64,000 nucleotides of DNA from an uncultured virus (IMG/VR IMGVR_UViG_3300032562_000011) (taxonomy: Duplodnaviria; Heunggongvirae; Uroviricota; Caudoviricetes), in the IMG/VR virus record IMGVR_UViG_3300032562_000011, one strand, 5' to 3'. Made by a program: the position numbers and the translations under genes. Position 1 is the first letter of the stretch; each line of letters opens with the position of its first letter. The notes beneath the pieces are model-generated. The model had not been told where the DNA came from and ran no database searches. It saw only the letters and a list, made by a program, of their open reading frames with translations. Below are positions 11,491 through 37,064 of this stretch, piece by piece.

Positions 11491-12363
11491 ATGACAGCTA
11501 CGTACCCAACACAGGTCAAAACCTTTAACACCCACAACACTCTTGATGTTATCAACGCGGGTGACCCAAACGCTATTCAAGACGAGGTTGTTGCCCTTGA
11601 GAGCACTGTAGGAGCTAACCCTACCCTGTCTACCACCCCAGCCACTACGGGTTGGAACGGAACTTCATACACTTATTCAACGGTAAGCGCTCGTATCGCC
11701 AACGTGGAGCTGGGCGTAGTCGGAGATTCTCATACTCAATACCTACGTAAGTCGGCGGATTCGGCTAACGTTATCACCCCAAGCGCAAATAACATCAAGG
11801 CTGCTGTGTTCAAAGCTGCAAGCGGACAATCTGTAAACCTTGTTGAATTTCAAAACTCATCTGGAACACCTGTCACCTATATTGATTCTAATGGTAACTT
11901 GCAGGGATTCAGCGTATCTGGAACCATAACTATTGGCAGCACTGCCATTTCCCTTAATGGCACAGCCACAACCATCGCTGGTTTGACGCTTACAGCGCCT
12001 GTGATTAATAACGGAACAATCAGCGGAGCTACTTACGTCACCCCTCCTAATAGCCAAACGGGAACGACTTACACAGCCGCGGCTATTGATGCCTATTCAT
12101 TTACGCTTCTCAGCAACGCTGCAGCTATCGCGGTGACAATCCCGCAAAATAACTCTGGAACTAACGGTTTCGGAGCAGGAACACAGCTTAACTTTGCTCA
12201 AATGGGTGCGGGACAGGTGACCATCTCTGGTGGTACAGGGGTAACCCTTCTTTCTACTGCGGCCACCCCAGCAGCGCCTAAGCTTAGACTTCAGTACAGC
12301 GTTGCAACAGCTGTTCAAACAAACGTAGCCAATACCTGGATAGTCACGGGGGACATAGTTTAA
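11491..12363 (+). CDS. virion fibre/structural protein
   Basis: Thr/Ser/Gly-rich beta content; QMGAGQVTI...LRLQYS...WIVTGD C-terminal fibre-tip-like domain. Confidence 0.7.
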   Translation: MTATYPTQVKTFNTHNTLDVINAGDPNAIQDEVVALESTVGANPTLSTTPATTGWNGTSYTYSTVSARIANVELGVVGDSHTQYLRKSADSANVITPSANNIKAAVFKAASGQSVNLVEFQNSSGTPVTYIDSNGNLQGFSVSGTITIGSTAISLNGTATTIAGLTLTAPVINNGTISGATYVTPPNSQTGTTYTAAAIDAYSFTLLSNAAAIAVTIPQNNSGTNGFGAGTQLNFAQMGAGQVTISGGTGVTLLSTAATPAAPKLRLQYSVATAVQTNVANTWIVTGDIV

Positions 12364-13361
12364 TGCCTAATTTCTTTGGGATTGTAGCTTCGTCTCTTGC
12401 TAAAGCTTTAGCGAGCGTGTTAGACACGTTTAACAGAGCTAATAATGCGTCTTCTTTGGGAACCGCTGATAATACGGTCGCCCCTACGGGTTCTTGGTCT
12501 GTTATTAGAGGCTCCTGGGGAATCGCGTCTAACGCCGCTAATAGTTCTACCGCCGCTTCTTCCTACCCGCTAGCTACGCTTAACTTTCAAAGTAATACAG
12601 TAACCTTAGGCGTAGATAACATCGGTCCAGGTGCTGGTACCGCTTTTTGGGTCACTGACTCTGGAACTTGGTGGGCTACTTATGTAGACGCCACACAGTC
12701 GTGCTCAACATGCTACAACGGTTCTAACACAAACTACACTACTTGCAATAACCCGTCTAACCCAATCAATGGAACTTGCAATAACCCGTCTAACCCAATC
12801 AATGGAACTTGTTATAACACATCTAACCCAATCAATGGAACTTGCTATAACCCGCCTAACTACGGCACCAATACTTGTATTAACATCGGATACTGCTATA
12901 ACGGAAACGCTTACACCTGTGTTACTGGGCATAACACGTCTAACCCTTACACGTGTGTTACGGGCTACAACACGTCTAACCCTTACACATGCGTAACTGG
13001 CCACAACACGTCTAACCCTTACACATGCGCATCTGGCTCCAACACGTCTAACGCCTATAGCTGTAGCTGCGTTACTAACACCTCAGTCAACCTCATAAAG
13101 TCTATAGCTAGCACTATCAGCACCGTAGCTACTTTCACCATGACCGCCACAGTCTTAGGTCTAAAGACCCTAATAAATGGTGTGACAGGGGTCATCACTG
13201 TGCGTGGGTATTCCACAACAGGATACACTACTCAAATTGGAACAGACCAAACAGCTACCGCTACAGGGTTTACCGCCAAAAATACCCATGGTATTATCCT
13301 CGGACCAACTACGTATAGCGCGGCTCAAACCGCTAATATTGACAACTTCCAAGTTAACTAA
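12363..13361 (+). CDS. fibre-associated beta protein with inserted 14-Cys repeat hairpin
   Basis: DTFNRAN..LG..W....GSW N-half and IDNF C-half flank the Cys/Asn repeats at 12702-13070. Confidence 0.75.
   Translation: MPNFFGIVASSLAKALASVLDTFNRANNASSLGTADNTVAPTGSWSVIRGSWGIASNAANSSTAASSYPLATLNFQSNTVTLGVDNIGPGAGTAFWVTDSGTWWATYVDATQSCSTCYNGSNTNYTTCNNPSNPINGTCNNPSNPINGTCYNTSNPINGTCYNPPNYGTNTCINIGYCYNGNAYTCVTGHNTSNPYTCVTGYNTSNPYTCVTGHNTSNPYTCASGSNTSNAYSCSCVTNTSVNLIKSIASTISTVATFTMTATVLGLKTLINGVTGVITVRGYSTTGYTTQIGTDQTATATGFTAKNTHGIILGPTTYSAAQTANIDNFQVN
12702..13070 (+). repeat. 33-nt and 36-nt coding tandem repeats
   Basis: TCxNxSNPING (11 aa) then TCVTGxNTSNPY (12 aa). Confidence 0.9.
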
Positions 13362-13370
13362 AGGACTAAC

Positions 13371-13709
13371 ATGCTGAAACAATATACGAAGTATGAGATA
13401 GAGAAAAAAAGGTTTCGTAAGGAAGCTCGACGTAAGTTCATAGATGATGTGGCGCACAAGCTTGGGCTTCACTTTCACTGGATTAGAGACCTACAAATAA
13501 AAAAGATTCTTGACCAAAACCTTGCCCCTGACACCTCAACTGTCACCGAGCGAATCGCTTTTGTAGTTAATGAAGAAGTAGTAGAGGTTATGTTCTGCCA
13601 GCCTAAACTTGCGGCTATTCTATTAAGCAACCCAACTATACTTGATGTATCATCAGACAAGCTAATACGACCTGGATATAAGTACAAAAACAATAAATTC
13701 ATAGCCTAG
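13371..13709 (+). CDS. hypothetical protein, paralog of 15324
   Basis: IAFVVNEEVVEVM..KLAAILLSNPT. Confidence 0.7.
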   Translation: MLKQYTKYEIEKKRFRKEARRKFIDDVAHKLGLHFHWIRDLQIKKILDQNLAPDTSTVTERIAFVVNEEVVEVMFCQPKLAAILLSNPTILDVSSDKLIRPGYKYKNNKFIA

Positions 13710-13718
13710 GAGCACTAT

Positions 13719-14483
13719 ATGAAGAAGGTAAACTTCTTACTTGACCGACACTACTCGTTGCCTATAACTAGCCCAGTACCCGCCTCATCCTTGCTGCCTA
13801 AATGGCACCGTGAGGGGGAGATGTACATAAATAAAAATACAGGGCTTTTGCATATAGCGGATGAGTTGGAACGTGCGGCTGGAATGCGCTTGTGTATGCC
13901 TTTCTTTGACTCTTTAAGCTCAGGGTTTTTCCTTACTACTTGGGCTGACATAGAGATAACTAGAAATGATGGACTTGCTATAGAGTGGCAGTACATTGAA
14001 AAAAATGTTAAAGGTGTTTGGATTAAAGCAAAAGATGATTGGGATATAGTAAAAGAGCGTCAAGGAGATATTGGCTACACAATCCCTAGACCTGCTGGTC
14101 ACGCCACTAACCACATGGTGTGGAACTCTAGGTGGGGTTGGCGCCTCCCTAAAGGTTGGAGCATGCTTGTTACTCACCCTCTAAACCAACATCAATTACC
14201 GTTTACTACTTTAGCCGCGATTGTAGACAGCGATAGATTTGCTTCCCATGGAAACATACCTTTCTTTCTACGTGAAGGCTGGACAGGTATTATTGAGAAG
14301 GGCACACCCTTCGCCCAATTAATTCCTATTAAACGCTCCGATTGGTTTATTGATACAAAAATTCAAGATAAAGAGGCGCTGTTTACTGCCCGTAGCGCTA
14401 GAGAAGTTTCTTATGGCTATTATCGGTCTAAGTTATGGGCTCCAAAAAAATACAAAAAGGAAGACAAAAATGGGTCTATTTAA
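13719..14483 (+). CDS. DUF6065-like protein (possible dUTPase-like fold)
   Basis: CMPFFDSLSSGF; LPKGWSMLVTHPLN; IVDSD; KGTPFAQLIPIKR. Confidence 0.65.
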   Translation: MKKVNFLLDRHYSLPITSPVPASSLLPKWHREGEMYINKNTGLLHIADELERAAGMRLCMPFFDSLSSGFFLTTWADIEITRNDGLAIEWQYIEKNVKGVWIKAKDDWDIVKERQGDIGYTIPRPAGHATNHMVWNSRWGWRLPKGWSMLVTHPLNQHQLPFTTLAAIVDSDRFASHGNIPFFLREGWTGIIEKGTPFAQLIPIKRSDWFIDTKIQDKEALFTARSAREVSYGYYRSKLWAPKKYKKEDKNGSI

Positions 14484-15267
14484 GAAGTCTAAGTGGGACA
14501 AGCGCTCTTCTGCTGACCCTTCAGATTCGGGAACTATTGACTTTTTATTAACTGAAACAGATGAGAGTACTTCTTACGTAGAAGTTAAAAAGGCCATTGA
14601 AGTTATACCTGACTGGTATAAAGATTTAGCGCCCAGGCGCATAATTAGAGAGGGAGACCTAAAAGACGACTTTACTATTAAGCGCTGCATTCCAGTCTTA
14701 GACGCGCTTACTACTGGTTACTATCTAGTTACTAAGTACGATATCACTTTTAAATATGACGAGGAACGGGGTTGGTGTGATTTAGAGGGTAACTTCAACC
14801 CCAATAAGCCAGAGGTTAGCATGCACCCTGTGCAACAACTAGGTAGCATGCCTTTTAGTCCAGAGTTTTCTAAGTATGCTTATAAATGGGATAACCCCTT
14901 CACCATTAAAACTCCTCCTGGTTATAGCGTCATGTTTACGCACCCAGTAAACGCCCCATATCTTCCCTTCTACACGCTAAGCGGCGTTGTAGACACAGAT
15001 ATGTATTTTCAACCTGTACTGTTCCCCTTCTTATCCAAAAATAACTTTAACGGCGTACTGCCCGCTGGAACACCTATTGTTCAAATTATCCCCTTCAAAA
15101 GAGATGATTGGAAGTCTGAGGTCTACACAGATGGGATGTCCAGGGAGTACCTACTCAACAGAAGTCAAATTAGTGAGGCTTATGAGAGCCAAAGGTACGA
15201 TAAAGACGGCAATGCCATGGGTGGTATGTACAAAAGGGACTACCGTAAAAAGAAAAAGTATTTATAA
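14470..15267 (+). CDS. DUF6065-like protein, paralog of 13719
   Basis: KRCIPVLDALTTGY; TPPGYSVMFTHPVN; SGVVDTD; GTPIVQIIPFKR; ATG at 14470. Confidence 0.65.
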   Translation: MGLFKKSKWDKRSSADPSDSGTIDFLLTETDESTSYVEVKKAIEVIPDWYKDLAPRRIIREGDLKDDFTIKRCIPVLDALTTGYYLVTKYDITFKYDEERGWCDLEGNFNPNKPEVSMHPVQQLGSMPFSPEFSKYAYKWDNPFTIKTPPGYSVMFTHPVNAPYLPFYTLSGVVDTDMYFQPVLFPFLSKNNFNGVLPAGTPIVQIIPFKRDDWKSEVYTDGMSREYLLNRSQISEAYESQRYDKDGNAMGGMYKRDYRKKKKYL

Positions 15268-18111: not shown

Positions 18112-18447
18112 CTATTTCATATACTTAGCTCTTCGGAGCCTACGCCTGTCTGTTTCTGTGGTTCCTGCCCAAATACCCTGCAGTGATGCGTCATTTAACG
18201 CGTATTCCAAACAAGGGTCTTTAAATTGACAAGCATCACATATAGGCTTAATACGCCTTAGGTTAGCCTTAGCGCCCTCTGGAGTCTCAGGAAAGAACAA
18301 CTCAGGGTCAACCTGAGTACATACCTGAGACCCGTCAAAATACGGCGCTTTAGTACCAGTTATGCTTTTGCCAGAACTTCCATGCGTTAATGATTCCTGC
18401 TGGGTCACTTGGGCTCCCGTATCGTTTTTGAATGTATCGTAGGCCAT
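18112..18447 (-). CDS. whiB: WhiB-family transcription factor
   Basis: C..DPELFFP...ICDAC...CLEYAL....GIWAGT...DR; start uncertain. Confidence 0.92.
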   Translation of the reverse strand: MAYDTFKNDTGAQVTQQESLTHGSSGKSITGTKAPYFDGSQVCTQVDPELFFPETPEGAKANLRRIKPICDACQFKDPCLEYALNDASLQGIWAGTTETDRRRLRRAKYMK

Positions 18448-21478: not shown

Positions 21479-21689
21479 CTTCAGTAGCCCAGCCCACTTA
21501 GCTATAGCTGGTTCGGCGGGGCTTGCAACATGGGCCGCGACAGGGTATTCTACTGACCCGAAACACCTTGTAGCTGTTGCCACAGCATCGCTAGCTGGTG
21601 TATCATCGCACACAGCGAGTTCGTCTTCACCTAACGTGCAGTCCGACTCGCACATCGTAACACCATACGTAAACAACATAGAGGAGTAA
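21462..21689 (+). CDS. holin-like small membrane protein
   Basis: two short hydrophobic segments; lysis cassette position. Confidence 0.5.
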   Translation: MGIKLNFSSPAHLAIAGSAGLATWAATGYSTDPKHLVAVATASLAGVSSHTASSSSPNVQSDSHIVTPYVNNIEE

Positions 21690-21692
21690 GAC

Positions 21693-22007
21693 ATGGCAAA
21701 GTTCACACGTTCAGAGGAAGTGCTCGTTGAGCACTATGTTTACACAACAGCGTCAGCTGCGGTTGTTTTGTGGCATGAAGGCCACCATAACATCCACACC
21801 ACACTATGGGCGGCACTAATTGGCGTAATTGCGCCAGTCGTTGCAAAGCTTAACCCACGCGGTGCTGTAGCAAAGCTTGCTAAGGAAGAGCACCTAAACG
21901 CGGCAACCACAGACGCTCTCCAGACTGTAGCCGCTTCTGCTGTTGCAGATGCCCAAAAGGTAGTCGCTAAGGCCGCTGTAGATGCTGCTGCTTCAGTAGC
22001 TAAGTAA
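21693..22007 (+). CDS. holin-like protein
   Basis: two TM segments, LNP motif, GAGGAG SD. Confidence 0.55.
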   Translation: MAKFTRSEEVLVEHYVYTTASAAVVLWHEGHHNIHTTLWAALIGVIAPVVAKLNPRGAVAKLAKEEHLNAATTDALQTVAASAVADAQKVVAKAAVDAAASVAK

Positions 22008-22020
22008 GTAGTCATACCAG

Positions 22021-22046
22021 AAGAGCGCCCTTCGGGGCGCTCTTTT
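22021..22046 (+). terminator. intrinsic terminator
   Basis: AAGAGCGCCC-ttcg-GGGCGCTCTTTT. Confidence 0.9.
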
Positions 22047-22076
22047 GCTATACTGATGCCTTAACTAGGAGGACTA

Positions 22077-22346
22077 ATGAAGTGCGATAACTGTTCTAAC
22101 GATGCTCAATACACTCACGCGGACCAAGGCGTAAGCCCTGCTCACTTCTGCCGCAACTGTCTGCCCCCAAATCTATACGAGCGCGCTCAGGCTGGGCATT
22201 TTCCTGTTCAGGACTCTGACACGGAAACAGATTCAGTTGAAGTGCCCGTTGCTAAAAGCAAGTCACAGGTGCGCCGAATCGCTAAAACTTTGGATATCCC
22301 AGAAGAAGATGTCGTATTAGAGACACCTGTAGATGAGGATAATTAG
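22077..22346 (+). CDS. zinc-finger hypothetical protein
   Basis: CDNC...CRNC; AGGAGG SD. Confidence 0.7.
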   Translation: MKCDNCSNDAQYTHADQGVSPAHFCRNCLPPNLYERAQAGHFPVQDSDTETDSVEVPVAKSKSQVRRIAKTLDIPEEDVVLETPVDEDN

Positions 22347-22629
22347 ACAAAAGGCTCTACAGGTACACCCAGTACCAGCACATGCCATGTCTCCAAAAGG
22401 ACCATTTCCAAAAGAAATGATGGCTGAGCCCGTAATTGTGTACGAGTATGACTCTGCGTATGAAGTAGACGGCTCAGACTTTGAGCTAGGGGCTACAGTT
22501 CAAAATAACTTTAAACCACCAAAGTACCTTAGATGTAGCGTATGTCTTGCCCGCGTCATAGAGACTGAAACCCAATACCATGTCTGTGAGGATGTAGATG
22601 GAGAACTACAACCGCCGTCGAACGAGTAG
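22333..22629 (+). CDS. hypothetical protein
   Basis: CSVC...HVC. Confidence 0.6.
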   Translation: MRIIRQKALQVHPVPAHAMSPKGPFPKEMMAEPVIVYEYDSAYEVDGSDFELGATVQNNFKPPKYLRCSVCLARVIETETQYHVCEDVDGELQPPSNE

Positions 22630-23050
22630 AAGCTTTAAAGACCTCCAACGCCAAGACGAGGCTAACAAACGCCTTAACATTGCGCTGGCGATGGGTGAAA
22701 AGGTCCGCGGTGAAGGTGAGACTCGTAAGCAGTGGAGCGACTTTGAGGTGCAAGACGCTAGAGAAGTTACTCCTGTTTATAATCAAATGACCGCCCCTAC
22801 TATTAATCCATCTAGGCCCAGAGCTCTAAAAATAGCCTACAGCAGAGAGGCAGAGAAGCTTGTAGTTAGATTTAGAGATGGAACTTGGTGGGAGTACAAC
22901 GAGGTTCCAGTAGACATCTGGAATGACCTTAAAGTCAGTGATTCCACTGGGCGTTATTTAAAACACTCAGGGCTAGACCAGCACGACAACATGGGACCAT
23001 TTAATCCAGATGAAATGCCAGAAGAAGTAAGGGTGATGTTTAACAACTAG
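22598..23050 (+). CDS. KTSC-domain protein
   Basis: IAY...KLVVRFRDG..WEY..VP..W..L..SDSTGRY. Confidence 0.8.
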   Translation: MENYNRRRTSRSFKDLQRQDEANKRLNIALAMGEKVRGEGETRKQWSDFEVQDAREVTPVYNQMTAPTINPSRPRALKIAYSREAEKLVVRFRDGTWWEYNEVPVDIWNDLKVSDSTGRYLKHSGLDQHDNMGPFNPDEMPEEVRVMFNN

Positions 23051-23340
23051 TGAAAACTTACGGACCACTATACGGCGGAACACTTAGATACTGGCATAAA
23101 AAGGCATTACCTATTGTAGAGGTAGGAAGTACACAAGAGACCGAGCATCCCTTTAGAAAAGGAAAGTGCCTAGTCCTCAGAGCCCCTTTCACAGAAACAG
23201 GCCTTTACTTTGGCCTCTGGTACTATAATCCTAAAGTTAATCCAGATGACGATTTAACAATAGATAAGATACTAGCTGAGGCTATGAAAGGCAGAGACGC
23301 CTGGAAGCCAGAGGACGGACTATTTGATGATATTTTCTAA
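23050..23340 (+). CDS. hypothetical protein
   Basis: coupled ORF. Confidence 0.6.
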   Translation: MKTYGPLYGGTLRYWHKKALPIVEVGSTQETEHPFRKGKCLVLRAPFTETGLYFGLWYYNPKVNPDDDLTIDKILAEAMKGRDAWKPEDGLFDDIF

Positions 23341-23569
23341 GCCTAAAGAACCTTGGACTAAACCTTTTTCAGAAAAAGTAGCTAAGCGCATCTCTAGGAT
23401 ACCAACAGGAGAACTTGAGCTTTGGGTAGACCAAGCCTTGTATGAAGTAGGGCGTTGCATGTCCAGCTACCAAAAGAATAGACAAGCCGTTTATCTAGAT
23501 GAAGCCCTCAAAGGCGCGGAAGCATTGCATGCAGTGGTTGACGAACTGCACAATCGAATGACGCGTTAA
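23324..23569 (+). CDS. hypothetical helical protein
   Basis: coupled ORF. Confidence 0.6.
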   Translation: MMIFSKPKEPWTKPFSEKVAKRISRIPTGELELWVDQALYEVGRCMSSYQKNRQAVYLDEALKGAEALHAVVDELHNRMTR

Positions 23570-23687: not shown

Positions 23688-26033
23688 ATGGAACACTTAA
23701 TAGACGAAGAAGACGAAGAGTTTGACCCCGAGATTGAGGGCGAACCCGCTCCTGAAGAACAGGAGGATGAGCTTGACGAGCTTTCTAAAGAGTTTGTAAA
23801 GAAGCTCATTGACCGTTGCATCCAATTTATGGATGCCCTTGTAGGCGTAGACGACGGTGAAGAACACGCTCTTCGCCCCTACCAACTACCTCTTGCCCGA
23901 CGCATCATTGAGTCTGTAATCATCAATGACGGTGAGGAAATCACAGCTCTGGCCGCTCGTCAGTCAGGCAAATCAGAAACTATTGCTAATACAGTAGCTA
24001 CTCTAATGGTACTTCTACCTCGCTTAGCAAAGATGTACCCAGACCTGCTAGGCAAGTATAAACATGGCCTTTGGGTAGGTATGTTTGCTCCAGTTGAGAC
24101 TCAGGCTGAAACTCTATTTGGGCGCACGGTTAACCGCCTAACTTCTGAGCGCGCCTTGGAGATTCTGGGTGACCCAGAGATTGACGATAGCTTGGGTAAG
24201 GTTCCTGGGGTAAAGCGTCAAATCAAATTGAAGAACTCTGGCTCTCGTATTGTAATGATGACTGCGAACCCACGAGCTAAAATTGAATCAGAATCGTTCC
24301 ATCTGGTAGTTATTGATGAGTGCCAAGAAGCTGATGATTTTATCGTTTCTAAATCTATTTCCCCTATGTTGGCTGCATATAACGGAACTATGATTAAAAC
24401 AGGTACTCCAACCACCCATAAGAACAACTTCTACAAGTCCATACAGTTTAATAAGCGTAGGCAGACCGCGCGTAACCGCCAGAACCACTTTCAATGGGAT
24501 TACAAAGATGTAGCCAAGGTTAGCCCTAACTATGGCAAGTACATCAAGAAAGAGATGCTTCGCATTGGCGAGGACTCTGATGAATTCCAGATGAGTTACA
24601 ACTGCCTTACTCCAGACACCAAGGTACTTACTGGAGACTTGCGCTATGTAGAAATAGGCTCAGTACAGGTAGGGGATATTTTAGTAGGCTTTGACGAGGA
24701 AACTCAAACAAAGGGCGCACATCGTAAGATACGTGAAACTACTGTAATTAAAGCGGAACGCATCTTTCGTCCTACCTATGAGATTGCGTTATCTGATGGC
24801 ACTGTGGTTAAGGCTTCTGACGGTCATTTATGGCTAGTATCAACCGCAGGTCGTCGCACCGTATGGAAGCGCACGGACGAGCTAACTTCCACCGACCGTA
24901 TATTTAAAATCTTTGATACGTGGAAGCACATTGAGGACTATCGCACAGGTTACCTATCCGCAGCCTTTGACGGAGAAGGTCACTTCTCTCGGCAAGCAAT
25001 GCTTGGGTTCTCTCAACGTGAAAACGTGATGCTTGGTAAAGTGCGAAAGTTCCTAGACGAATTAGGCTTTAAGTACTGGGAACGCCATGAGACTGGGACC
25101 AACAATGATGTGACGGTCCTTCATATTGCTGGTGGTCGAGCAGGGATGTCTCGTTTCTTAGGGCAAATTCGTCCTGAGCGTTTACTTCAAAAAGTGGACC
25201 TTAATTCATTTGGCTCTATTGGTCGCCATGATTTTGTGGGGCAGGACTTTGAGCACCCGCTAGTGCTATCGGTGACTTCTGTTGGAGAACAAGAAGTCGT
25301 TGCGCTTGAGACTACAACTCAAACTTTTATTGCAGAAGGCCTCGCGTCGCATAACTGTAAATGGCTTCTTGAACGAGGCATGTTCGTCACCTCATCCGTC
25401 ATGGATAAGCTTGGTGACACCTCTATGGAGATTCAGCGCGCTTGGCATAGAACCCCAGTAGTTGTGGGGATTGACCCAGCTCGTAAGATTGACTCTACTG
25501 TTGTTACCGTAGTGTGGGTCAACTGGGATACTCCAGATGAATTTGGGTACTACGACCACCGCGTACTTAACTGGCTTGAGCTACAGGGTGACGACTGGGA
25601 AGACCAGTACTTCCAGATTGTTAAATTCTTAGAGGCCTACGACGTTATGTACGTGGGTGTAGACGCCAACGGTGTGGGTGATGCTGTTGCCCAACGCTTA
25701 AAGCTTTTGTTACCCCGAGCTGAGGTATTTGCTGTGGGCAGTAGCCAACCAGAGCAGTCAAAGCGTTGGAAGCACCTAAAAGCTCTCATTGACAGAGAGT
25801 TGATTGGGTGGCCTGCACACGCTAAAACTCGCAGATTGCGCACATGGAAGCGCTTTTACCAGCAGATGACTGACCTAGAAACTAAGTTTACTGGGCCTAA
25901 CTTCTTGGCAAAAGCCCCTGATGAGGCGCATGCCCATGACGACTACGCGGATAGCCTAGCTATCGCCTGCGCTTTAACTTTAGATATGACACTGCCTCAA
26001 GTAGAGGTCTCTAGTTCACCATTCTTTAGATAG
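23688..26033 (+). CDS. terL: terminase large subunit containing an intein
   Basis: LRPYQ; ARQSGKS Walker A; VVIDECQ Walker B; GTPT; VGIDPA nuclease motif; HDDYADS. Confidence 0.95.
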   Translation: MEHLIDEEDEEFDPEIEGEPAPEEQEDELDELSKEFVKKLIDRCIQFMDALVGVDDGEEHALRPYQLPLARRIIESVIINDGEEITALAARQSGKSETIANTVATLMVLLPRLAKMYPDLLGKYKHGLWVGMFAPVETQAETLFGRTVNRLTSERALEILGDPEIDDSLGKVPGVKRQIKLKNSGSRIVMMTANPRAKIESESFHLVVIDECQEADDFIVSKSISPMLAAYNGTMIKTGTPTTHKNNFYKSIQFNKRRQTARNRQNHFQWDYKDVAKVSPNYGKYIKKEMLRIGEDSDEFQMSYNCLTPDTKVLTGDLRYVEIGSVQVGDILVGFDEETQTKGAHRKIRETTVIKAERIFRPTYEIALSDGTVVKASDGHLWLVSTAGRRTVWKRTDELTSTDRIFKIFDTWKHIEDYRTGYLSAAFDGEGHFSRQAMLGFSQRENVMLGKVRKFLDELGFKYWERHETGTNNDVTVLHIAGGRAGMSRFLGQIRPERLLQKVDLNSFGSIGRHDFVGQDFEHPLVLSVTSVGEQEVVALETTTQTFIAEGLASHNCKWLLERGMFVTSSVMDKLGDTSMEIQRAWHRTPVVVGIDPARKIDSTVVTVVWVNWDTPDEFGYYDHRVLNWLELQGDDWEDQYFQIVKFLEAYDVMYVGVDANGVGDAVAQRLKLLLPRAEVFAVGSSQPEQSKRWKHLKALIDRELIGWPAHAKTRRLRTWKRFYQQMTDLETKFTGPNFLAKAPDEAHAHDDYADSLAIACALTLDMTLPQVEVSSSPFFR
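24603..25355 (+). mobile_element. intein (251 aa) with LAGLIDADG-type motif in TerL
   Basis: N|CLTPDTKVL...ASDGHLW...GYLSAAFDGEG...LASHN|C. Confidence 0.92.
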
Positions 26034-26947: not shown

Positions 26948-29665
26948 GTGAGCGGTATGGATTTCTCCCCACCGAGTTACCGCGCAGCATCCTCTGATTT
27001 AACCATCTCCATTTCTCCACTAGGACTAGTGGAATTGGCAGATGAAGAGTTTGAAGTACACGGTCCCCGCCTTAACCGTTATTCCCTTAACTGGGCTATG
27101 TACCTAGGCCACCACTACTCTTATCGCCGTCAAACAGGCGAAACCCAAATGATGCTCAACTATTACAGAGCATTCTCAGACTTTCTAATTAACTTTACAT
27201 TCGGTAAGGGCGTTAACTTCCGTAGCCCTAAAGAGACCGAAGCTATTGTCCCAGACCTGCTTGAGCGCGTATGGGAAGTAGATAACAATAAGGCTACTGT
27301 TCTATGGGAAATCGGACAACAAGGAACTGTCTCAGGTGACTGCTTTATTAAAGTCGCTTACGAAGAGGCCTACGTAGACCCAGCTGGGCGTCAACACCCT
27401 GGACGAGTCCGCATCCTCCCTCTTAACTCTTCTTTCTGTTTCCCAGAGTTCCACCCCCATGACCGCGAACGTCTTGTGCGTTTTAAGCTCAAGTACCGCT
27501 TTTGGGGTTGTGTAGACACTGAAACAGAAGCTCTAACACGCTCTGGGTGGAAGAGATATGATGAATTAGTTGATGGGGATGAAATTCTTACTCTTGACCC
27601 TAATACTGATGAAATCCAGTGGAAATCTGCTCTAATAAATATCTATGATTATTCAGGGCATATGGTTCAATGGTCTAATCACATCAATGCTGTCTCTACC
27701 CCTAATCATAGGTGGTTAGTCGAAAAACAAGTAGGTAGGAATGACACCCTAGCTTATGAGAGACAAATCGCCCGTACAGAGATAGGAATAGATGGAGACC
27801 CAAGTATCTCGGACCTCCGAAATGGAAGTCGCATTATAGTAGGTGGTGGAACTCCACGGGCTTTTTCTACTACTAAAACGATAGAAGATGAAGTTGTAGA
27901 GACGTTAGCTTGGTACATATGTGAAGGAAATGACCATACAAACCAAAATGGATATCGTTCTGGGAGAATATCTCAAAGTTCTATAGTTTATCCAGAAAAG
28001 ACAGAGCGTATCCGTACTCTTGCTAAATGGTGGAGGGATACTAAAGGAGCCAGTTTCTCTGAGGGAGTTATTAAACCTCGCGGGGTTGTTGAATTTTATC
28101 TGGGTAAGGGTACTTTTGGAGTATTAGATACTTTGGCACCTAATAAAGAAATAACTCCAGAACTTATAACCAGTTTGACCGCAGAACAAGCATCTCTCTT
28201 TTATGAAACGCTATTAGATGCAGACGGTTGCAGAACCCATGGAGATAAGAAAACTACCCGATGGACTCAATTAGATGCTGGTCGTAAGGATTCTTTCCAA
28301 ATGCTGGCAGCTATGCTAGGTATTCGTTCTAATATCACATCAGATAATGAAAAAGTACAGGTTTATAGTAAGAGACACATCCTCTCTGACTATACGTCAG
28401 CTAGTGCCCAAAGGGTATATTTAGAGGATGGAAAGATTTGGTGTCCTACAGTAGATGGTGGTATTTGGTTTGCCCGTAGAGAGGGGTCTACATATTGGAC
28501 GGGTAATACATCACTAGAAGGCACACGTCAGGTGTTTACCTATACAGAAATCCTGACAGACGACGTAATTGAGGAATACATCAATGATGAGCTTATTGAC
28601 TCCCGCCCTAATCCGCTCGGCACTATTCCTGTTATTCATATTCCGAATGTTCGTATTAGTGGTAGCCCTTGGGGTCTCAGCGACTGCAACGACATTATTA
28701 ACATTAATCGCGCTTATAATGAAACTGCCACTGATATTGCTGACATTGTTAACTACCACGCAGCACCAGTTACGGTCATCATTGGCGCAAAGGCCTCACA
28801 ATTAGAAAAGGGCGCCAACAAAGTATGGGGCGGACTTCCAAAAGACGCTCGCGTTGAGAACCTTGAAGGCGGAGCACAAGGACTAAAGGGAGCCATGGAG
28901 TTCATGGCTATGATGAAGAAGTCCATGCACGAGATGATTGGTGTTCCAGAGACTGCTCTTGGACAAGCACAACCTATCTCTAACACCTCAGGCGTTGCAC
29001 TTTCTATTCAATTCCAGCCTTTGATGAACCGTTACCACCAGAAGATTATTCAGTACTCGCACGGACTAGAGCGTGTTAATGAGCTTATCCTCCTAAATCT
29101 TGCTCTAAAAGAACCTGAGACCTTTATTTGGGACCCTAACTCAAGCACTACTCCGTTAAAGCAAGGTCAACTTGCACAGTTAGACGTTAACGACCCCCTT
29201 ACTTTCCGTTCATATGTTCACTTCCCACAGCCACTCCCACTAGACAAGCTGATTGCTCTTAACGAAATTCAATCTAAGTTGTCCCTTGGTCTTGAGTCTA
29301 AAGAGGGAGCGCTTCGCTCTCTTGGTGAAGAGTTCCCAGCAGAGAAGCTCACTGAAATTCGTCAAGAACTTCAAGATGACGCCCTTGCTGATGGCGCACT
29401 TAAACTTATTCAAACACAGATTGAGCAGGACATCCTGGCTCTTACAGGCGCACAGCCTGGTGCCGCTGGTGCTCCATCTACCCCAATGGGTGGTCCTGGA
29501 GCTCCTGGTGGAGATGTACCAATGACTCCTACTGAACCTGTCGTACTAGACGAGGCCACTATCGCCGCACAAATGGGTGACCAAGGCGTACGCGCCCGCC
29601 TCGTAACTGATGCTTACGGAACCAAACTCCCACAGAGAAGGGTCCCGCAAGACTACGAAAAATAA
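26948..29665 (+). CDS. portal protein (SPP1 gp6-like) containing an intein
   Basis: position after TerL; NPLGTIPVIHIPN..PWGLSD; SGVAL; 333-aa insert. Confidence 0.9.
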   Translation: MSGMDFSPPSYRAASSDLTISISPLGLVELADEEFEVHGPRLNRYSLNWAMYLGHHYSYRRQTGETQMMLNYYRAFSDFLINFTFGKGVNFRSPKETEAIVPDLLERVWEVDNNKATVLWEIGQQGTVSGDCFIKVAYEEAYVDPAGRQHPGRVRILPLNSSFCFPEFHPHDRERLVRFKLKYRFWGCVDTETEALTRSGWKRYDELVDGDEILTLDPNTDEIQWKSALINIYDYSGHMVQWSNHINAVSTPNHRWLVEKQVGRNDTLAYERQIARTEIGIDGDPSISDLRNGSRIIVGGGTPRAFSTTKTIEDEVVETLAWYICEGNDHTNQNGYRSGRISQSSIVYPEKTERIRTLAKWWRDTKGASFSEGVIKPRGVVEFYLGKGTFGVLDTLAPNKEITPELITSLTAEQASLFYETLLDADGCRTHGDKKTTRWTQLDAGRKDSFQMLAAMLGIRSNITSDNEKVQVYSKRHILSDYTSASAQRVYLEDGKIWCPTVDGGIWFARREGSTYWTGNTSLEGTRQVFTYTEILTDDVIEEYINDELIDSRPNPLGTIPVIHIPNVRISGSPWGLSDCNDIININRAYNETATDIADIVNYHAAPVTVIIGAKASQLEKGANKVWGGLPKDARVENLEGGAQGLKGAMEFMAMMKKSMHEMIGVPETALGQAQPISNTSGVALSIQFQPLMNRYHQKIIQYSHGLERVNELILLNLALKEPETFIWDPNSSTTPLKQGQLAQLDVNDPLTFRSYVHFPQPLPLDKLIALNEIQSKLSLGLESKEGALRSLGEEFPAEKLTEIRQELQDDALADGALKLIQTQIEQDILALTGAQPGAAGAPSTPMGGPGAPGGDVPMTPTEPVVLDEATIAAQMGDQGVRARLVTDAYGTKLPQRRVPQDYEK
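27509..28507 (+). mobile_element. intein (333 aa) with LAGLIDADG endonuclease in portal
   Basis: G|CVDTETEALTRSGW...STPNHRW...LAWYICEG...LLDADG...TYWTGN|T. Confidence 0.92.
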
Positions 29666-32391: not shown

Positions 32392-33456
32392 GTGGCCACA
32401 GTAGTTGACCTAATCTCAAGAGTAAGACTTGAGCTTGGAGACCAAGCTTCACAGTTTTCTTACTCAGCGACGGGTGATGACTCTACAACCACCTTCAGCT
32501 TAGGCTATAAGCCTGTTGACCCCACTACTCTATTAGTAACTGTAGCCAACACAAACATACCTACCCCTGCTGGGTACACCCTTGAGCAGGATACTGGAGT
32601 AATCCATTTTGTTACACCCCCAGCCGCATCCGATTCTATAGTGGTCAGTGGCATTCATTATCGTTATTTTACGGATGATGACATCACTATCTTTCTTAAT
32701 ACAGCCATTGTTGAGCATACTTTTAACCGCACAGACGTCTACGGCTCTCAGATAACCGTAGCCACCATCCCTTCTGTAGAGGAGTACCCAATCGCGGTAC
32801 TTGCTATCGTGGATGCCCTTTGGGCTTTGGCAACCGACGCGGCGTTTGATATTAACATTACCGCCCCAGACGGCGTAGTTATCCCACGCTCACAACGGTT
32901 CTCTCAGCTCAGCATGCACATTGAAAAGCGCATGGAGAACTACAAGATGCTCTGCGCCCAGCTTAACGTGGGTCTTTATCGTATTGAAATGGGTACGCTT
33001 ATCCGCACCTCGCGTACAACTAACAAGTACATCCCTATCTACATGGGTCAAGAAGTTGATGACTCTCGCCAGCCAGAGCGCGTTTACATCAATAACAACC
33101 TCATGGGCCGCAATGCTCCCATTGCGTACTGCAACGTACAAGACATTGTTCTATATCAAGGTGACTCATTCTATACAGAAATAGATTTCCCATTTGATAT
33201 TACTGGACTCAACTTTAAAGCTCAGATTCGCACCTACCCTAACTCGCCATCTCTGTATGGAACCTTCACGATTACTGTACTCTCCACCAGCTCATCTGTC
33301 AGTACGATTAGCCTTACCCTTACCAATTCAGACACTGCGTACATGCCTGTCCGTGCTTTCTGGGACCTGCAAGCGACATCAGCCACAGACTCAACTTACG
33401 AGCAAACTTACGTGCGTGGACAAGTATTTACTATCCAGCAGGTGACCCTTGACTAG
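32392..33456 (+). CDS. head-tail adaptor/neck protein with fibre-anchoring C-terminal domain
   Basis: LISRVRLELGD; YFTDDDI; QGD..F..DITG..FKAQIR..WDLQ. Confidence 0.7.
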   Translation: MATVVDLISRVRLELGDQASQFSYSATGDDSTTTFSLGYKPVDPTTLLVTVANTNIPTPAGYTLEQDTGVIHFVTPPAASDSIVVSGIHYRYFTDDDITIFLNTAIVEHTFNRTDVYGSQITVATIPSVEEYPIAVLAIVDALWALATDAAFDINITAPDGVVIPRSQRFSQLSMHIEKRMENYKMLCAQLNVGLYRIEMGTLIRTSRTTNKYIPIYMGQEVDDSRQPERVYINNNLMGRNAPIAYCNVQDIVLYQGDSFYTEIDFPFDITGLNFKAQIRTYPNSPSLYGTFTITVLSTSSSVSTISLTLTNSDTAYMPVRAFWDLQATSATDSTYEQTYVRGQVFTIQQVTLD

Positions 33457-34624
33457 TTGTGGCTGTGGTTATAACGGAGGACCTGGCTGCACCTGCGTAG
33501 CCCAAACAATTACTATTATTCCTCCTGCGTCTATTCCTATTGTTATTGGAACTGGGCAAGGCGGAACTCGTGGCGTTCAAGGTATCCAAGGTGCACAGGG
33601 CGTACAAGGCACGCAAGGTGTGCAAGGCCCTAACGCGGCAATCTATTTTGGTTTAACCCCACCAGCTAACCCGCTTATCGGTGACCGTTGGATTGACTCT
33701 TCTTCTGGCTCTGAGTACACATGGGTATACGACGGAAATTCTTATGCGTGGGTAGAAGTATCCGCAAGCGGGTACGTAGGTACTCAAGGAACTCAAGGTA
33801 CCCAAGGTACTCAAGGTACTCAAGGATTTGTTGGGGCACAAGGAATTCAGGGTACACAAGGTGCGCAGGGCCTACTTGGGTTGCAAGGATTTGTTGGTAA
33901 TCAAGGAACAACTGGTGCACAGGGTACAACTGGTACTCAAGGTATTAACGGATTACAAGGCGCCATTGGTAGCCAAGGACTTACGGGGGCACAAGGTACC
34001 AACGGAACTCAAGGTACACAGGGTTCAACAGGTTTACAGGGCGCTCAAGGTGTTCAAGGCCTTCAAGGTACTCAAGGGCTTGTTGGTACGCAGGGGACCC
34101 TTGGTATGCAAGGTGCGCAAGGTACTAATGGTGCACAGGGACTACAAGGAATTTCTATACAGGGTATTCAGGGTATTCAAGGAACAACAGGTAGTCAGGG
34201 CACAGCTGGTTCGCAGGGATTACAGGGAACGATTGGTAGCCAAGGAGCTCAAGGCACTAGTGGTCTTCAAGGTACAGCTGGTAGCCAAGGAACTACAGGT
34301 TTACAGGGCAGTCAAGGCGTTCAGGGCGTACAGGGAACTACTGGAACCCAAGGTTTAACTGGGCTACAAGGATTCATCGGAACCCAAGGAGCAACGGGAA
34401 CTCAAGGTTTCACAGGCTCTCAAGGAACTATCGGAACAACTGGCTCGAATGGTTCGCAAGGAACACAAGGTATTCAAGGTATTCAAGGTATTCAAGGTAT
34501 TCAATCAACCCAAGGAACAACTGGACTTCAAGGTCTGCAAGGACCTCAGGGCGTACAAGGACTACTTAACACGGTAATCTATGATTCTGACCAAGGCGTT
34601 ATTTCACAACAGATGTTCAGTTAA
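33449..34624 (+). CDS. collagen-like fibre protein
   Basis: long Gly-X-Gln triplet run; PP.NP..GD.WID motif. Confidence 0.85.
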   Translation: MTSCGCGYNGGPGCTCVAQTITIIPPASIPIVIGTGQGGTRGVQGIQGAQGVQGTQGVQGPNAAIYFGLTPPANPLIGDRWIDSSSGSEYTWVYDGNSYAWVEVSASGYVGTQGTQGTQGTQGTQGFVGAQGIQGTQGAQGLLGLQGFVGNQGTTGAQGTTGTQGINGLQGAIGSQGLTGAQGTNGTQGTQGSTGLQGAQGVQGLQGTQGLVGTQGTLGMQGAQGTNGAQGLQGISIQGIQGIQGTTGSQGTAGSQGLQGTIGSQGAQGTSGLQGTAGSQGTTGLQGSQGVQGVQGTTGTQGLTGLQGFIGTQGATGTQGFTGSQGTIGTTGSNGSQGTQGIQGIQGIQGIQSTQGTTGLQGLQGPQGVQGLLNTVIYDSDQGVISQQMFS

Positions 34625-35951: not shown

Positions 35952-36782
35952 ATGACAACAACTATCTATAACAACTCATCATTTAGCGATTCTCCTTATG
36001 GGCTAAAACTTCAACAAACCTTTACTACAAGCGGTTCCGTAACAATCCCGTCAAACATCTTGCGTGTTTACGCAGTTGTTATTGGTGGAGGCGGAGCTGG
36101 TTCTACTCAAACTACTGGTGGTGGCGGTGGCGGTGGAGCAGGTGGGTATTCTGCTGGTTGGACTTTTATTTCTAACACAGTCACAGTCGGTGCAGGCGGT
36201 ACTGGAACATCAACTGCTGCTGCGGGTGCTAACGGCAATTCTTCACTTTATGGAATGGTTTTTGCAGGTGGTGGTTCAGGTGGATTGAGCTCAACAGTTG
36301 GTGGCGCTGGCGCAGGAGCAACAACTTCTACAGGTTCAACTTCAACAGTTTCTTACACAGGCGCTCCAACGGCTGCTGCTAACACAGTTGGTTATGGTGC
36401 AGGTGGCGGCGTAGGTGCTATTGGTGGTGCTGGTATTTCATCAGGTGGCGGTGCGGGTGTTGCAACGGCAACTGGCACACAAACTGCCTATGCTGGTGGT
36501 CGCGGACTTATCGCTGGTGGTGGCGGTGCTGCTGGAACTTCAGGTGTTGGAACAGGTGGAGCAGGCGGCACTGGCGATTTTTTTGCAGGTGGAACTGGTT
36601 CATCAGGAACAGGTACATCTTTTGGTGGCGGTGGTGGCGGTGCTGGGTATACTGGTGCAGGTTCTAACGCTTCAGGCAACAGCGGTGGTAACGGAGGTTC
36701 TGGTGGGGGTGGCGGCGGAGCTGGTTCTACACTTGGAACTGCTGGCAGTGGCGGCAATGGCGTTGTTTATCTTTACTACTAA
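35952..36782 (+). CDS. glycine-rich adhesin-like protein 2
   Basis: PYGL.LQQT shared with 34984; GNGVVYLYY end. Confidence 0.8.
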   Translation: MTTTIYNNSSFSDSPYGLKLQQTFTTSGSVTIPSNILRVYAVVIGGGGAGSTQTTGGGGGGGAGGYSAGWTFISNTVTVGAGGTGTSTAAAGANGNSSLYGMVFAGGGSGGLSSTVGGAGAGATTSTGSTSTVSYTGAPTAAANTVGYGAGGGVGAIGGAGISSGGGAGVATATGTQTAYAGGRGLIAGGGGAAGTSGVGTGGAGGTGDFFAGGTGSSGTGTSFGGGGGGAGYTGAGSNASGNSGGNGGSGGGGGGAGSTLGTAGSGGNGVVYLYY

Positions 36783-36944: not shown

Positions 36945-37064
36945 ATGTCACAGTTAATGTATTACGACACAGTTTCAGGGCAGTGGTTGCCTGTCGTAGT
37001 TGGGGCGCAAGGATTAACACAAGAAGAGATTAATGCTCTTATAGGAGATACAAGTGGCTATTGA
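36945..37064 (+). pseudogene. chimeric remnant: collagen-fibre N-terminus fused to chaperone-like C-terminus
   Basis: MSQLMYYD..SGQWLPVVVGAQG + LTQEEINALIG. Confidence 0.5.

Follow-up and report, generated by a model that had tools for sequence, protein, structure and literature searches.

Lectin-type receptor-binding modules are known from phages, and hairpins with nested disulfides are known as short peptides: in theta-defensins, the protegrin/tachyplesin class and hepcidin, antiparallel arms are joined by nested, ladder-like disulfides. T-even phage adhesins of the gp38 type, whose gene lies right after the fibre gene, present a repetitive scaffold with hypervariable polar and aromatic segments that are thought to set host range. 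Here we analyse an open reading frame (ORF; positions 12363 to 13361) that encodes a 332-aa protein in a 64,000-nucleotide stretch of DNA, henceforth the window, from an uncultured member of the Caudoviricetes (IMG/VR record IMGVR_UViG_3300032562_000011). With a probability of roughly 0.6, we think that the product is a tail-fibre-associated adhesin, i.e. a receptor-binding protein, carrying a disulfide-stapled hairpin of tunable length, and that it belongs to a contractile-tailed phage with a probable actinobacterial host. The apparent novelty lies in a ladder of many rungs that is made of two co-varying tandem repeats and sits as an insertion in a tail adhesin.

The ORF and its parts are listed below, along with the confidence (predicted local distance difference test, pLDDT) of an AlphaFold2 (AF2) model of the two halves of the core.

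12363..13361, plus strand: cysteine-ladder adhesin ORF, open, 332 aa; lectin-like beta-sandwich with a cysteine-ladder hairpin insertion
12363..12701, plus strand: N-terminal half of the beta-sandwich core, aa 1-113 (AF2 pLDDT 96-98 for residues 21-110)
12702..13070, plus strand: cysteine-ladder hairpin insertion, aa 114-236, 123 residues, containing all 14 cysteines
12723..12860, plus strand: outgoing-arm tandem array, 33 nt x 4.2 with 85% matches (Tandem Repeats Finder), encoding 11-aa units TCxNxSNPING
12876..12896, plus strand: apex, Cys172-INIGY-Cys178, where the repeat type switches, with seven cysteines on either side
12906..13052, plus strand: returning-arm tandem array, 36 nt x 4.1 with 86% matches (Tandem Repeats Finder), encoding 12-aa units TCVTGxNTSNPY
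13071..13361, plus strand: C-terminal half of the beta-sandwich core, aa 237-332 plus stop (AF2 pLDDT 97-98 for residues 231-332)

The cysteines occupy residues 114, 117, 128, 139, 150, 161, 172, 178, 186, 198, 210, 222, 234 and 236 (successive spacings 3, 11, 11, 11, 11, 11, 6, 8, 12, 12, 12, 12 and 2). An initial annotation of this DNA had described exactly 14 cysteines in the order CSTC, 11-aa units, CINIGYC, 12-aa units and CSC, with seven on either side of the apex, and the translated ORF agrees on both counts: the arms Cys114-Cys172 and Cys178-Cys236 each span 58 residues and hold seven cysteines. Its further claim that repeat copy number is matched stands for cysteine count and arm length, which are balanced, but not for the repeats themselves, whose numbers are not strictly equal, the outgoing arm having five 11-aa gaps and the returning arm one 8-aa and four 12-aa gaps. 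As seven is an odd number, pairing purely within each arm is ruled out. At the DNA level the two arrays are separate direct-repeat families (D2 outgoing, D1 returning), and repeat analysis of the insertion DNA found no inverted repeat in the hairpin region, so that the mirror symmetry is a property of the protein level only. Asn makes up 23% of the hairpin segment, Thr 17%, and Cys, Ser and Tyr 11% each; charged residues are absent. Judged from a single protein, the symmetry of the spacing is only modestly significant (p=0.027 against shuffles of its own gaps, for P0001, a near-identical relative with equal spacings), and the weight of the observation therefore comes from the family.

A word-indexed search of metagenomic sequence yielded 108 relatives and an exhaustive HMMER search 278 cluster representatives at E<=1e-3, and IMG/VR contigs contain 209 loci with relatives of the 332-aa protein. 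For family-wide counts we used 205 full-length proteins out of 242 collected, delimiting the insertion with hidden Markov models of the N- and C-terminal conserved parts; the 37 proteins without a complete N- and C-domain were excluded from the parity and symmetry counts. Symmetry tests omit proteins with fewer than 8 cysteines, odd counts or duplicate patterns, and the test of mirror against direct fit additionally omits patterns with fewer than three distinct gaps. Three candidates (P0126, P0150 and P0238) were rejected as homologues: their long, unidirectional C-x10/11 repeats come without the core domain and the matches are compositional. Pfam (E<=0.01) and PHROG returned no family for the 332-aa protein; GenBank phages gave no match, either to the protein (tblastn) or to the surrounding 10 kb (megablast), and the family profile found no chain among PDB sequences at E<=1. 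Across bacterial and archaeal genomes, sampled as one per species for 185,579 species, there is a single relative, on a contig of a metagenome-assembled genome, which indicates that the family is not a common prophage gene.

The number of cysteines in the insertion ranges from 0 to 46 (four relatives have zero) and is even in 201 of the 205 full-length proteins. Cysteine accounts for 11.3% of insertion residues and ~0.0% of flanking residues across the family, and insertion length varies from 52 to 423 aa. Even counts point to pairs. Since there is no preference for multiples of four (96 proteins, against 101 whose count is 2 mod 4), they point to pairs rather than tetrads, i.e. to disulfides rather than Zn(Cys)4 sites. 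This speaks against the possibility that the cysteines bind metal, as Zn(Cys)4 or Fe-S, and that the hairpin is a string of metal knuckles. Folding in the reducing cytoplasm would be no obstacle to metal sites; the base motif CxxC...CxC (residues 114, 117, 234 and 236) resembles a four-cysteine zinc knuckle or ribbon, and one relative, P0136, retains just those four base cysteines around a 101-residue cysteine-free loop. On the other hand, the 332-aa protein has 14 cysteines, those of the ladder are 5-12 residues apart with one per repeat, so that four could not readily converge, and insertions family-wide are nearly devoid of His (0.2%) and of Asp plus Glu (2.3%). We therefore regard metal binding as an improbable account of the ladder and disfavour the metal-stapled version that the initial annotation had offered as an alternative, while noting that a single Zn site may sit at the hairpin base with disulfides above it. 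Lanthionine or other cross-links between Cys and Ser/Thr were rejected as the main chemistry since they would not impose even cysteine counts.

The spacing of the cysteines is mirrored as well. A model that equates gap i with gap N-i outperforms a direct-repeat model in 155 of 179 informative distinct patterns (worse in 13, equal in 11), with a median gap mismatch of 2.0 residues for the mirror, 5.0 for the direct and 4.95 for the shuffled arrangement. Individually, 79 of the 179 patterns are significant at p<0.01. When gaps are pooled over 180 distinct patterns, mirrored gaps correlate with r=0.753 (n=1436), compared to 0.084 when gaps are translated and 0.025 in a between-protein control, and the best centre of symmetry is exactly the central cysteine pair in 125 of these 180. 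In the 332-aa protein the apex is marked independently by the change of repeat type.

Pairs of relatives illustrate how balance is kept. P0003 (65-70% identical) is one unit shorter on each arm, with four 11-aa and three 12-aa gaps; in P0075/P0066, P0033/P0086 and P0060/P0063, units added on both arms set the two members apart. The outgoing arm of P0128 has seven cysteines at intervals of about 4 residues and its returning arm seven at intervals of about 5, and P0084 has a 92-residue gap on each arm. In P0005 the outgoing arm is built of C-x5-C-x8 and the returning arm of CC-x13, and in P0017 the assignment is reversed, a swap that is hard to account for unless the two arm types touch each other. 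The units in question look like 'two-disulfide rungs', C-x5-C-x8 (or C-x7-C-x5) standing opposite CC-x13 (or CC-x12), and such modules, CC facing C-x5-C, are possibly usable in either orientation. The initial annotation had read coupled expansion of the arms from one protein; the balanced changes exemplified by P0003 and the mirrored gaps of the homologues fit cross-arm pairing. The family pattern, as far as sequence goes, fits a hairpin with nested pairing of cysteines across the arms and selection for balanced arms.

Mirror-symmetric spacing would likewise be expected from an antiparallel dimer, and one might ask whether the disulfides link subunits, joining copies of the protein to each other or to the fibre or baseplate, instead of forming a ladder within one chain. 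There is precedent in cyanophage Pam3, where, according to part of the published report (PMC9942802), tail fibres and baseplate are joined by disulfide cross-links. Parallel homo-oligomers, however, impose neither even counts nor mirror symmetry, and an antiparallel dimer would tolerate the odd counts that nearly all (201/205) relatives avoid. In addition, the ends of the insertion are held by one domain (see below), which already places the arms side by side in one chain. We consider inter-subunit linkage very improbable.

The AF2 model, built from a 150-sequence alignment, has a mean pLDDT of 79.5 and a predicted template modelling score of 0.72, with residues 21-120 and 231-332 at 94-98. 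Residues 13-113 and 237-332 fold as a single beta-sandwich (pLDDT ~98), consistent with the earlier description of a cysteine stretch inserted between two beta-rich halves, and because both flanks form one domain the insertion must leave and return at one place. The hairpin base is modelled as paired strands, E102-118 with E231-248 and E125-129 with E221-225; going by the strand limits, a register of i+j=350 would set Cys114/236, 128/222 and 172/178 opposite each other.

Comparison with VIA-align identifies the core as a fold of the concanavalin A (ConA)-like lectin/carbohydrate-binding module (CBM) type, with matches spanning model residues 9 to 332. Among the closest matches, CBM66 (4b1m_A) is found with Z 15.7 and a root-mean-square deviation of 2.8 over 149 aa, the C-terminal receptor-binding domain of TM4 gp23 (PDB 9n6a) with Z 15.6 over 169 aa, and the CBM of Douge BppU/gp23 (PDB 8zdo) with Z 14.7 over 175 aa; the last of these binds to the surface of mycobacteria and to cell-wall glycans, according to part of the report that describes it (PMC13033339). 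In total 103 chains reach Z>=8, mostly lectins, CBMs and GH16/GH43 accessory domains among the matches listed. In BFVD, phages of Arthrobacter, Gordonia, Streptomyces and Rhodococcus contribute minor tail and tail fibre proteins (E 3e-5 to 2e-4), and there are uncharacterised 'uncultured Caudovirales' homologues besides. Foldseek found no match for the model in PDB at E<=1e-3, the fold having been found by VIA-align, and at the sequence level the protein does not belong to Laminin_G_3, CBM66 or similar Pfam families. For the insertion alone, the sole PDB sequence match is a thrombospondin type 1 repeat (TSR) at a non-significant E=1.5, and ESM Atlas contains no usable match to the hairpin.

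The insertion is also the most variable part of the protein. The largest group of relatives with a near-identical cysteine pattern comprises 7 of 205 members. Even at 98% identity, in the comparison with P0001, six of eight differences fall in the hairpin, and most of them change Asn or Tyr to an aromatic residue. Some insertions are free of cysteine or retain only the closing CxxC...CxC (P0061, P0127, P0176, P0211, P0136 and P0179); cysteine-poor versions are built of Tyr/Ser/Gly (PPSYYAG), Pro/Gly (TNPPPGGG) or NYG(I/V)T repeats. Since cysteine-free versions exist, the hairpin can evidently stand without staples. Tyr makes up 11.6% of insertions and 2.9% of flanks across the family. An uncharged finger rich in Asn, Thr, Ser and Tyr, with a composition like that of glycan contacts and faster variation than the core, suggests that it is part of the host-recognition surface. 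The initial annotation had proposed a stalk that presents a small tip loop, a notion we disfavour given that the whole insertion varies, that there are cysteine-free versions, and that apex loops measure anything from 1 to 174 residues. A diversity-generating retroelement, which the wealth of Asn in the variable region had brought to mind, was rejected as the source of the variability, there being no template copy and no reverse transcriptase: a sensitive blastn search found no second copy of the insertion DNA in the window (best match outside the insertion 23 nt), and Pfam and PHROG scans of the window's ORFs found no reverse transcriptase.

A link to the tail is suggested by the gene immediately upstream.

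11491..12363, plus strand: minor tail fibre gene, 290 aa, whose C-terminal ~100 aa form a conserved fibre-end domain

Residues 156-289 of this fibre have PHROG matches to minor tail and virion structural proteins, and residues 187-289 are 46-48% identical to the C-termini of annotated minor tail proteins in 197 GenBank phage records (tblastn), 191 of which are Gordonia phages; a sequence search of PDB gave no match to the fibre. Its stop codon TAA overlaps the ATG of the adhesin as TAATG, with GGGGGA 9 nt upstream, and by this arrangement the adhesin gene is translationally coupled to the fibre gene. Where related IMG/VR loci include enough upstream sequence, 44 of 78 have an ORF ending in the fibre-end domain whose stop is no more than a few bases from the start of the homologue, and the upstream fibres that bear the domain range from 96 to 1989 aa. 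Fold matches and fibre-gene context together sit well with a tail role, as the initial annotation had it in calling the product a virion protein. Gordonia phage Tolls (record 21618-23452) has a minor tail protein with the fibre-end domain followed by an overlapping 143-aa hypothetical ORF, a pair that comes after the lysis cassette and at a distance from the main tail genes, an arrangement resembling that of the window. N-terminal extensions of 32-139 aa, in which 'VKVSGxWK'-like motifs recur, precede the lectin core in about 37 family members (P0007, P0146 and P0241 among them) and may be a built-in anchor that takes the place of docking on another fibre; a search of the 242 proteins for a fusion between the cysteine-ladder protein and the fibre C-terminal domain found none.

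How might such a protein work? In the scenario we favour, the N- and C-terminal thirds of the chain form the conserved ConA-like/CBM beta-sandwich core, from which two adjacent long strands would extend outward as a two-stranded ribbon into the 123-residue hairpin. Its antiparallel arms would most likely be stapled by seven essentially nested disulfides running from arm to arm (114-236, 117-234, 128-222, 139-210, 150-198, 161-186 and 172-178), which would form once the virion meets an oxidising environment and yield a thin, rigid, protease-resistant finger. Each arm being its own tandem DNA repeat, units could be gained or lost independently by slippage, while selection would retain those versions in which every cysteine has a partner; in this way relatives could vary in length (0-23 putative rungs) and yet stay balanced. 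The adhesin would dock on the conserved end of the co-made tail fibre, and finger and lectin core would together offer a hypervariable, repetitive contact surface for a repeating glycopolymer of the cell envelope, with the finger setting reach, valency and host specificity.

A number of observations weigh against this scenario. Four relatives (P0062, P0103, P0108 and P0119) have odd cysteine counts, and mirror symmetry is not significant in many members, with p>0.5 in 15 of the 179 patterns. The high correlation of arm lengths (r=0.91) is partly built in, the apex being defined as the central cysteine pair, and we therefore base the argument on the gap tests. Nor do the base motifs mirror each other: they are CxxC...CxC here and CxCxxC...CxCxxC in another clade. 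The AF2 model pairs the base of the nested hairpin that the initial annotation had envisaged, but residues 143-215 are below pLDDT 50 (39-48), so that the ladder itself is not confidently predicted. All seven disulfides are putative; phage proteins fold in the reducing cytoplasm, and no gene for a thiol oxidase or thioredoxin-like protein was found in the window. Gene order is what argues for attachment to the fibre. Disulfide chemistry, exact pairing, fibre attachment and binding function are things that we infer.

To these points one should add geometry. With units of 11 and 12 aa, the middle rungs are up to 3 residues out of step with a simple beta-ribbon, and the true geometry must therefore differ from that of a plain ribbon. 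The same mismatch lends something to the idea, which we think unlikely on the whole, that the insertion is a beta-solenoid or beta-roll akin to insect or grass antifreeze proteins, its cysteines stacked in the core and a flat array of Thr and Asn on its surface, or else a pair of solenoids, side by side or interleaved, in place of a flat two-stranded ladder. Units of 11-12 aa with a T-C-x motif, rich in Asn, Thr and Ser, would suit such a fold, and the returning-arm repeats of P0005 (residues 294-355, CCAGSNPVVPGNPYT) reach PF21300, the grass antifreeze beta roll, with 30.2 bits against a gathering cut-off of 30 (E 4.7e-07), a match that may be compositional or may hint at a beta-roll. Yet the other 18 of the 19 representatives scanned are without a PF21300 match, as the 332-aa protein is without any Pfam match; Tenebrio antifreeze protein has two cysteines per coil where there is one per unit here, and the 4-5-residue spacings of many relatives are too short for coils. 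Mirror symmetry and parity would, moreover, still demand that the arms match, so that this alternative concerns the geometry of the ladder and not the topology of the hairpin.

A different doubt attaches to function. Assembly factors are often encoded immediately downstream of fibre genes, and a gene in this position could encode a chaperone for fibre assembly; alternatively, the protein could be a passive spacer, the hairpin a loop under low constraint that is merely stabilised by cysteines, with no part in host recognition. Apart from the position directly after the fibre gene, the existence of cysteine-free and very short insertions is in keeping with this, implying as it does that the hairpin is dispensable for the fold of the core. 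Three lines of evidence argue otherwise: the core fold is common to experimentally supported receptor-binding modules of actinophages, substitutions cluster in the hairpin between proteins of 98% overall identity, and strong aromatic and polar enrichment, exemplified by Tyr, is typical of surfaces in contact with glycans, not of linkers without constraint. We assign a chaperone or spacer a low probability, and an adhesin remains the reading we prefer.

Downstream of the adhesin lie three further genes on the plus strand.

13371..13709, plus strand: conserved small ORF, 112 aa, with a weak phrog_7753 match; relatives occur just downstream in 34 of 80 loci (tblastn)
13719..14483, plus strand: DUF6065/phrog_7084 paralogue 1, 254 aa (phrog_7084 E 5.8e-32), with a dUTPase-like fold
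14350..15267, plus strand: DUF6065/phrog_7084 paralogue 2 (PF19541 E 3.6e-06, phrog_7084 E 2.1e-42), matching from residue 67

Translation of the second paralogue probably begins further downstream than the listed TTG start, which overlaps the preceding gene. Related loci carry one to three DUF6065 paralogues, with a DUF6065 ORF at most 2.5 kb downstream of the homologue in 37 of 70. The DUF6065 model (AF2 pLDDT 95) has as its top 22 matches proteins that are all of the dUTPase/dCTP-deaminase fold (Z 8.8-5.0, then 3.2), residues H153, N156, D170 and D172 are at least 90% conserved, and there is no match to PDB by sequence. A role for DUF6065 as a thiol oxidase or 2-oxoglutarate oxygenase that matures the hairpin finds no support, the fold being dUTPase-like.

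The window as a whole is that of a contractile-tailed phage, with terminase, portal, capsid, sheath, tube, baseplate and collagen-like fibres. One gene is relevant to the host.

18112-18447, minus strand: WhiB-family transcription factor (PF02467 E 1.6e-15), beside a minus-strand SLT transglycosylase

WhiB proteins are a hallmark of actinobacteria and their phages. Together with CHAP/NlpC-P60 lysins encoded in the window and a tail sheath that is nearest to those of Streptomyces myophages (37% identity), this indicates that the host is probably actinobacterial. Elsewhere, the terminase large subunit (23688-26033, plus strand, 781 aa) has Intein_splicing and LAGLIDADG_3 matches between Terminase_6N and Terminase_6C (Pfam) and is interrupted by an intein with a LAGLIDADG homing endonuclease domain. 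The portal (26948-29665, plus strand) is unusually long at 905 aa; its SPP1-portal match covers only residues 528-855, and in its ~500 N-terminal residues the PhoH-like and ThyX families of PHROG are matched weakly. Two tail fibre genes with collagen repeats flank a Gly_rich_2 gene (33449-34624, 35952-36782 and 37054-39240, plus strand), and the Gly_rich_2 (PF21722) protein also matches a 'tail fiber assembly' PHROG. The phage thus has several distinct fibre systems besides the one linked to the adhesin.

Tentatively, and at somewhat less than even odds, we would go further and see in this protein an undescribed architecture, an evolvable cystine-ladder finger in which two different tandem repeats pair with each other, grafted on a lectin-like tail adhesin as a rigid, hypervariable binding scaffold. 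Slippage in either array would then generate length variants of which only balanced ones survive, with anything from zero to at least 23 rungs, and the finger would stand as nature's counterpart to stalk-and-knob antibody loops or to engineered disulfide-rich binders. Full-text literature, as searched (subscription journals lay outside the search), contains no description of a cysteine-ladder hairpin in a phage tail protein. If the proposal is true, it amounts to a new and simple rule for making rigid protein rods of tunable length from low-complexity sequence, and to a clear natural case of two tandem repeats that co-evolve through residue-for-residue pairing. It would also point to what determines host range in a large group of uncultured, probably actinobacterial phages (209 IMG/VR loci, 278 cluster representatives) and provide a ready-made hypervariable, protease-resistant scaffold for the engineering of binders, and it would raise the question of how a phage assembled in a reducing cytoplasm brings 7-23 disulfides into order.

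How, then, does the protein compare with systems already described? Its core has the same ConA-like beta-sandwich as the TM4 gp23 receptor-binding domain, the Douge BppU CBM and CBM66, with 149-175 residues aligned, and with the TM4 and Douge modules it also has in common a tail location and an actinobacterial host, the latter only likely here. Sequence identity to the three is 8-15%, the comparison covering core residues alone, and whereas the TM4 and Douge modules are domains of larger tail proteins, the 332-aa protein is the product of a free-standing gene.

Likeness to Cys/Thr-rich antifreeze proteins and thrombospondin type 1 repeats, which are likewise thin, elongated, disulfide-braced and rich in Asn and Thr, is compositional and non-significant; these folds are unidirectional or three-stranded and none has complementary arms with mirrored cysteine spacing. 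S16 gp38 and Pam3 gp24, the latter a glycine-rich tip of the fibre, as part of the Pam3 report describes them (PMC9942802), are lattices of glycine-rich motifs in which polar and aromatic residues abound. To these scaffolds the cysteine-poor relatives P0136, P0179 and P0127, with their Gly/Pro/Tyr repeats, are akin, although no homology of the 332-aa protein to gp38 or gp24 adhesins was detected, and where gp38 and gp24 are polyglycine-II lattices without cysteine, we see here a two-armed hairpin in a lectin fold with up to 23 putative rungs. The closest parallel to the ladder as such is the class of theta-defensins, protegrin/tachyplesin and hepcidin. Those are free cationic peptides of ~18-25 residues with 2-4 rungs at short, in-register spacing; the finger described here, in contrast, is uncharged and part of a 30-kDa protein, has seven putative rungs (0-23 in relatives) that are 4-15 residues apart, and is built of two different tandem repeats.

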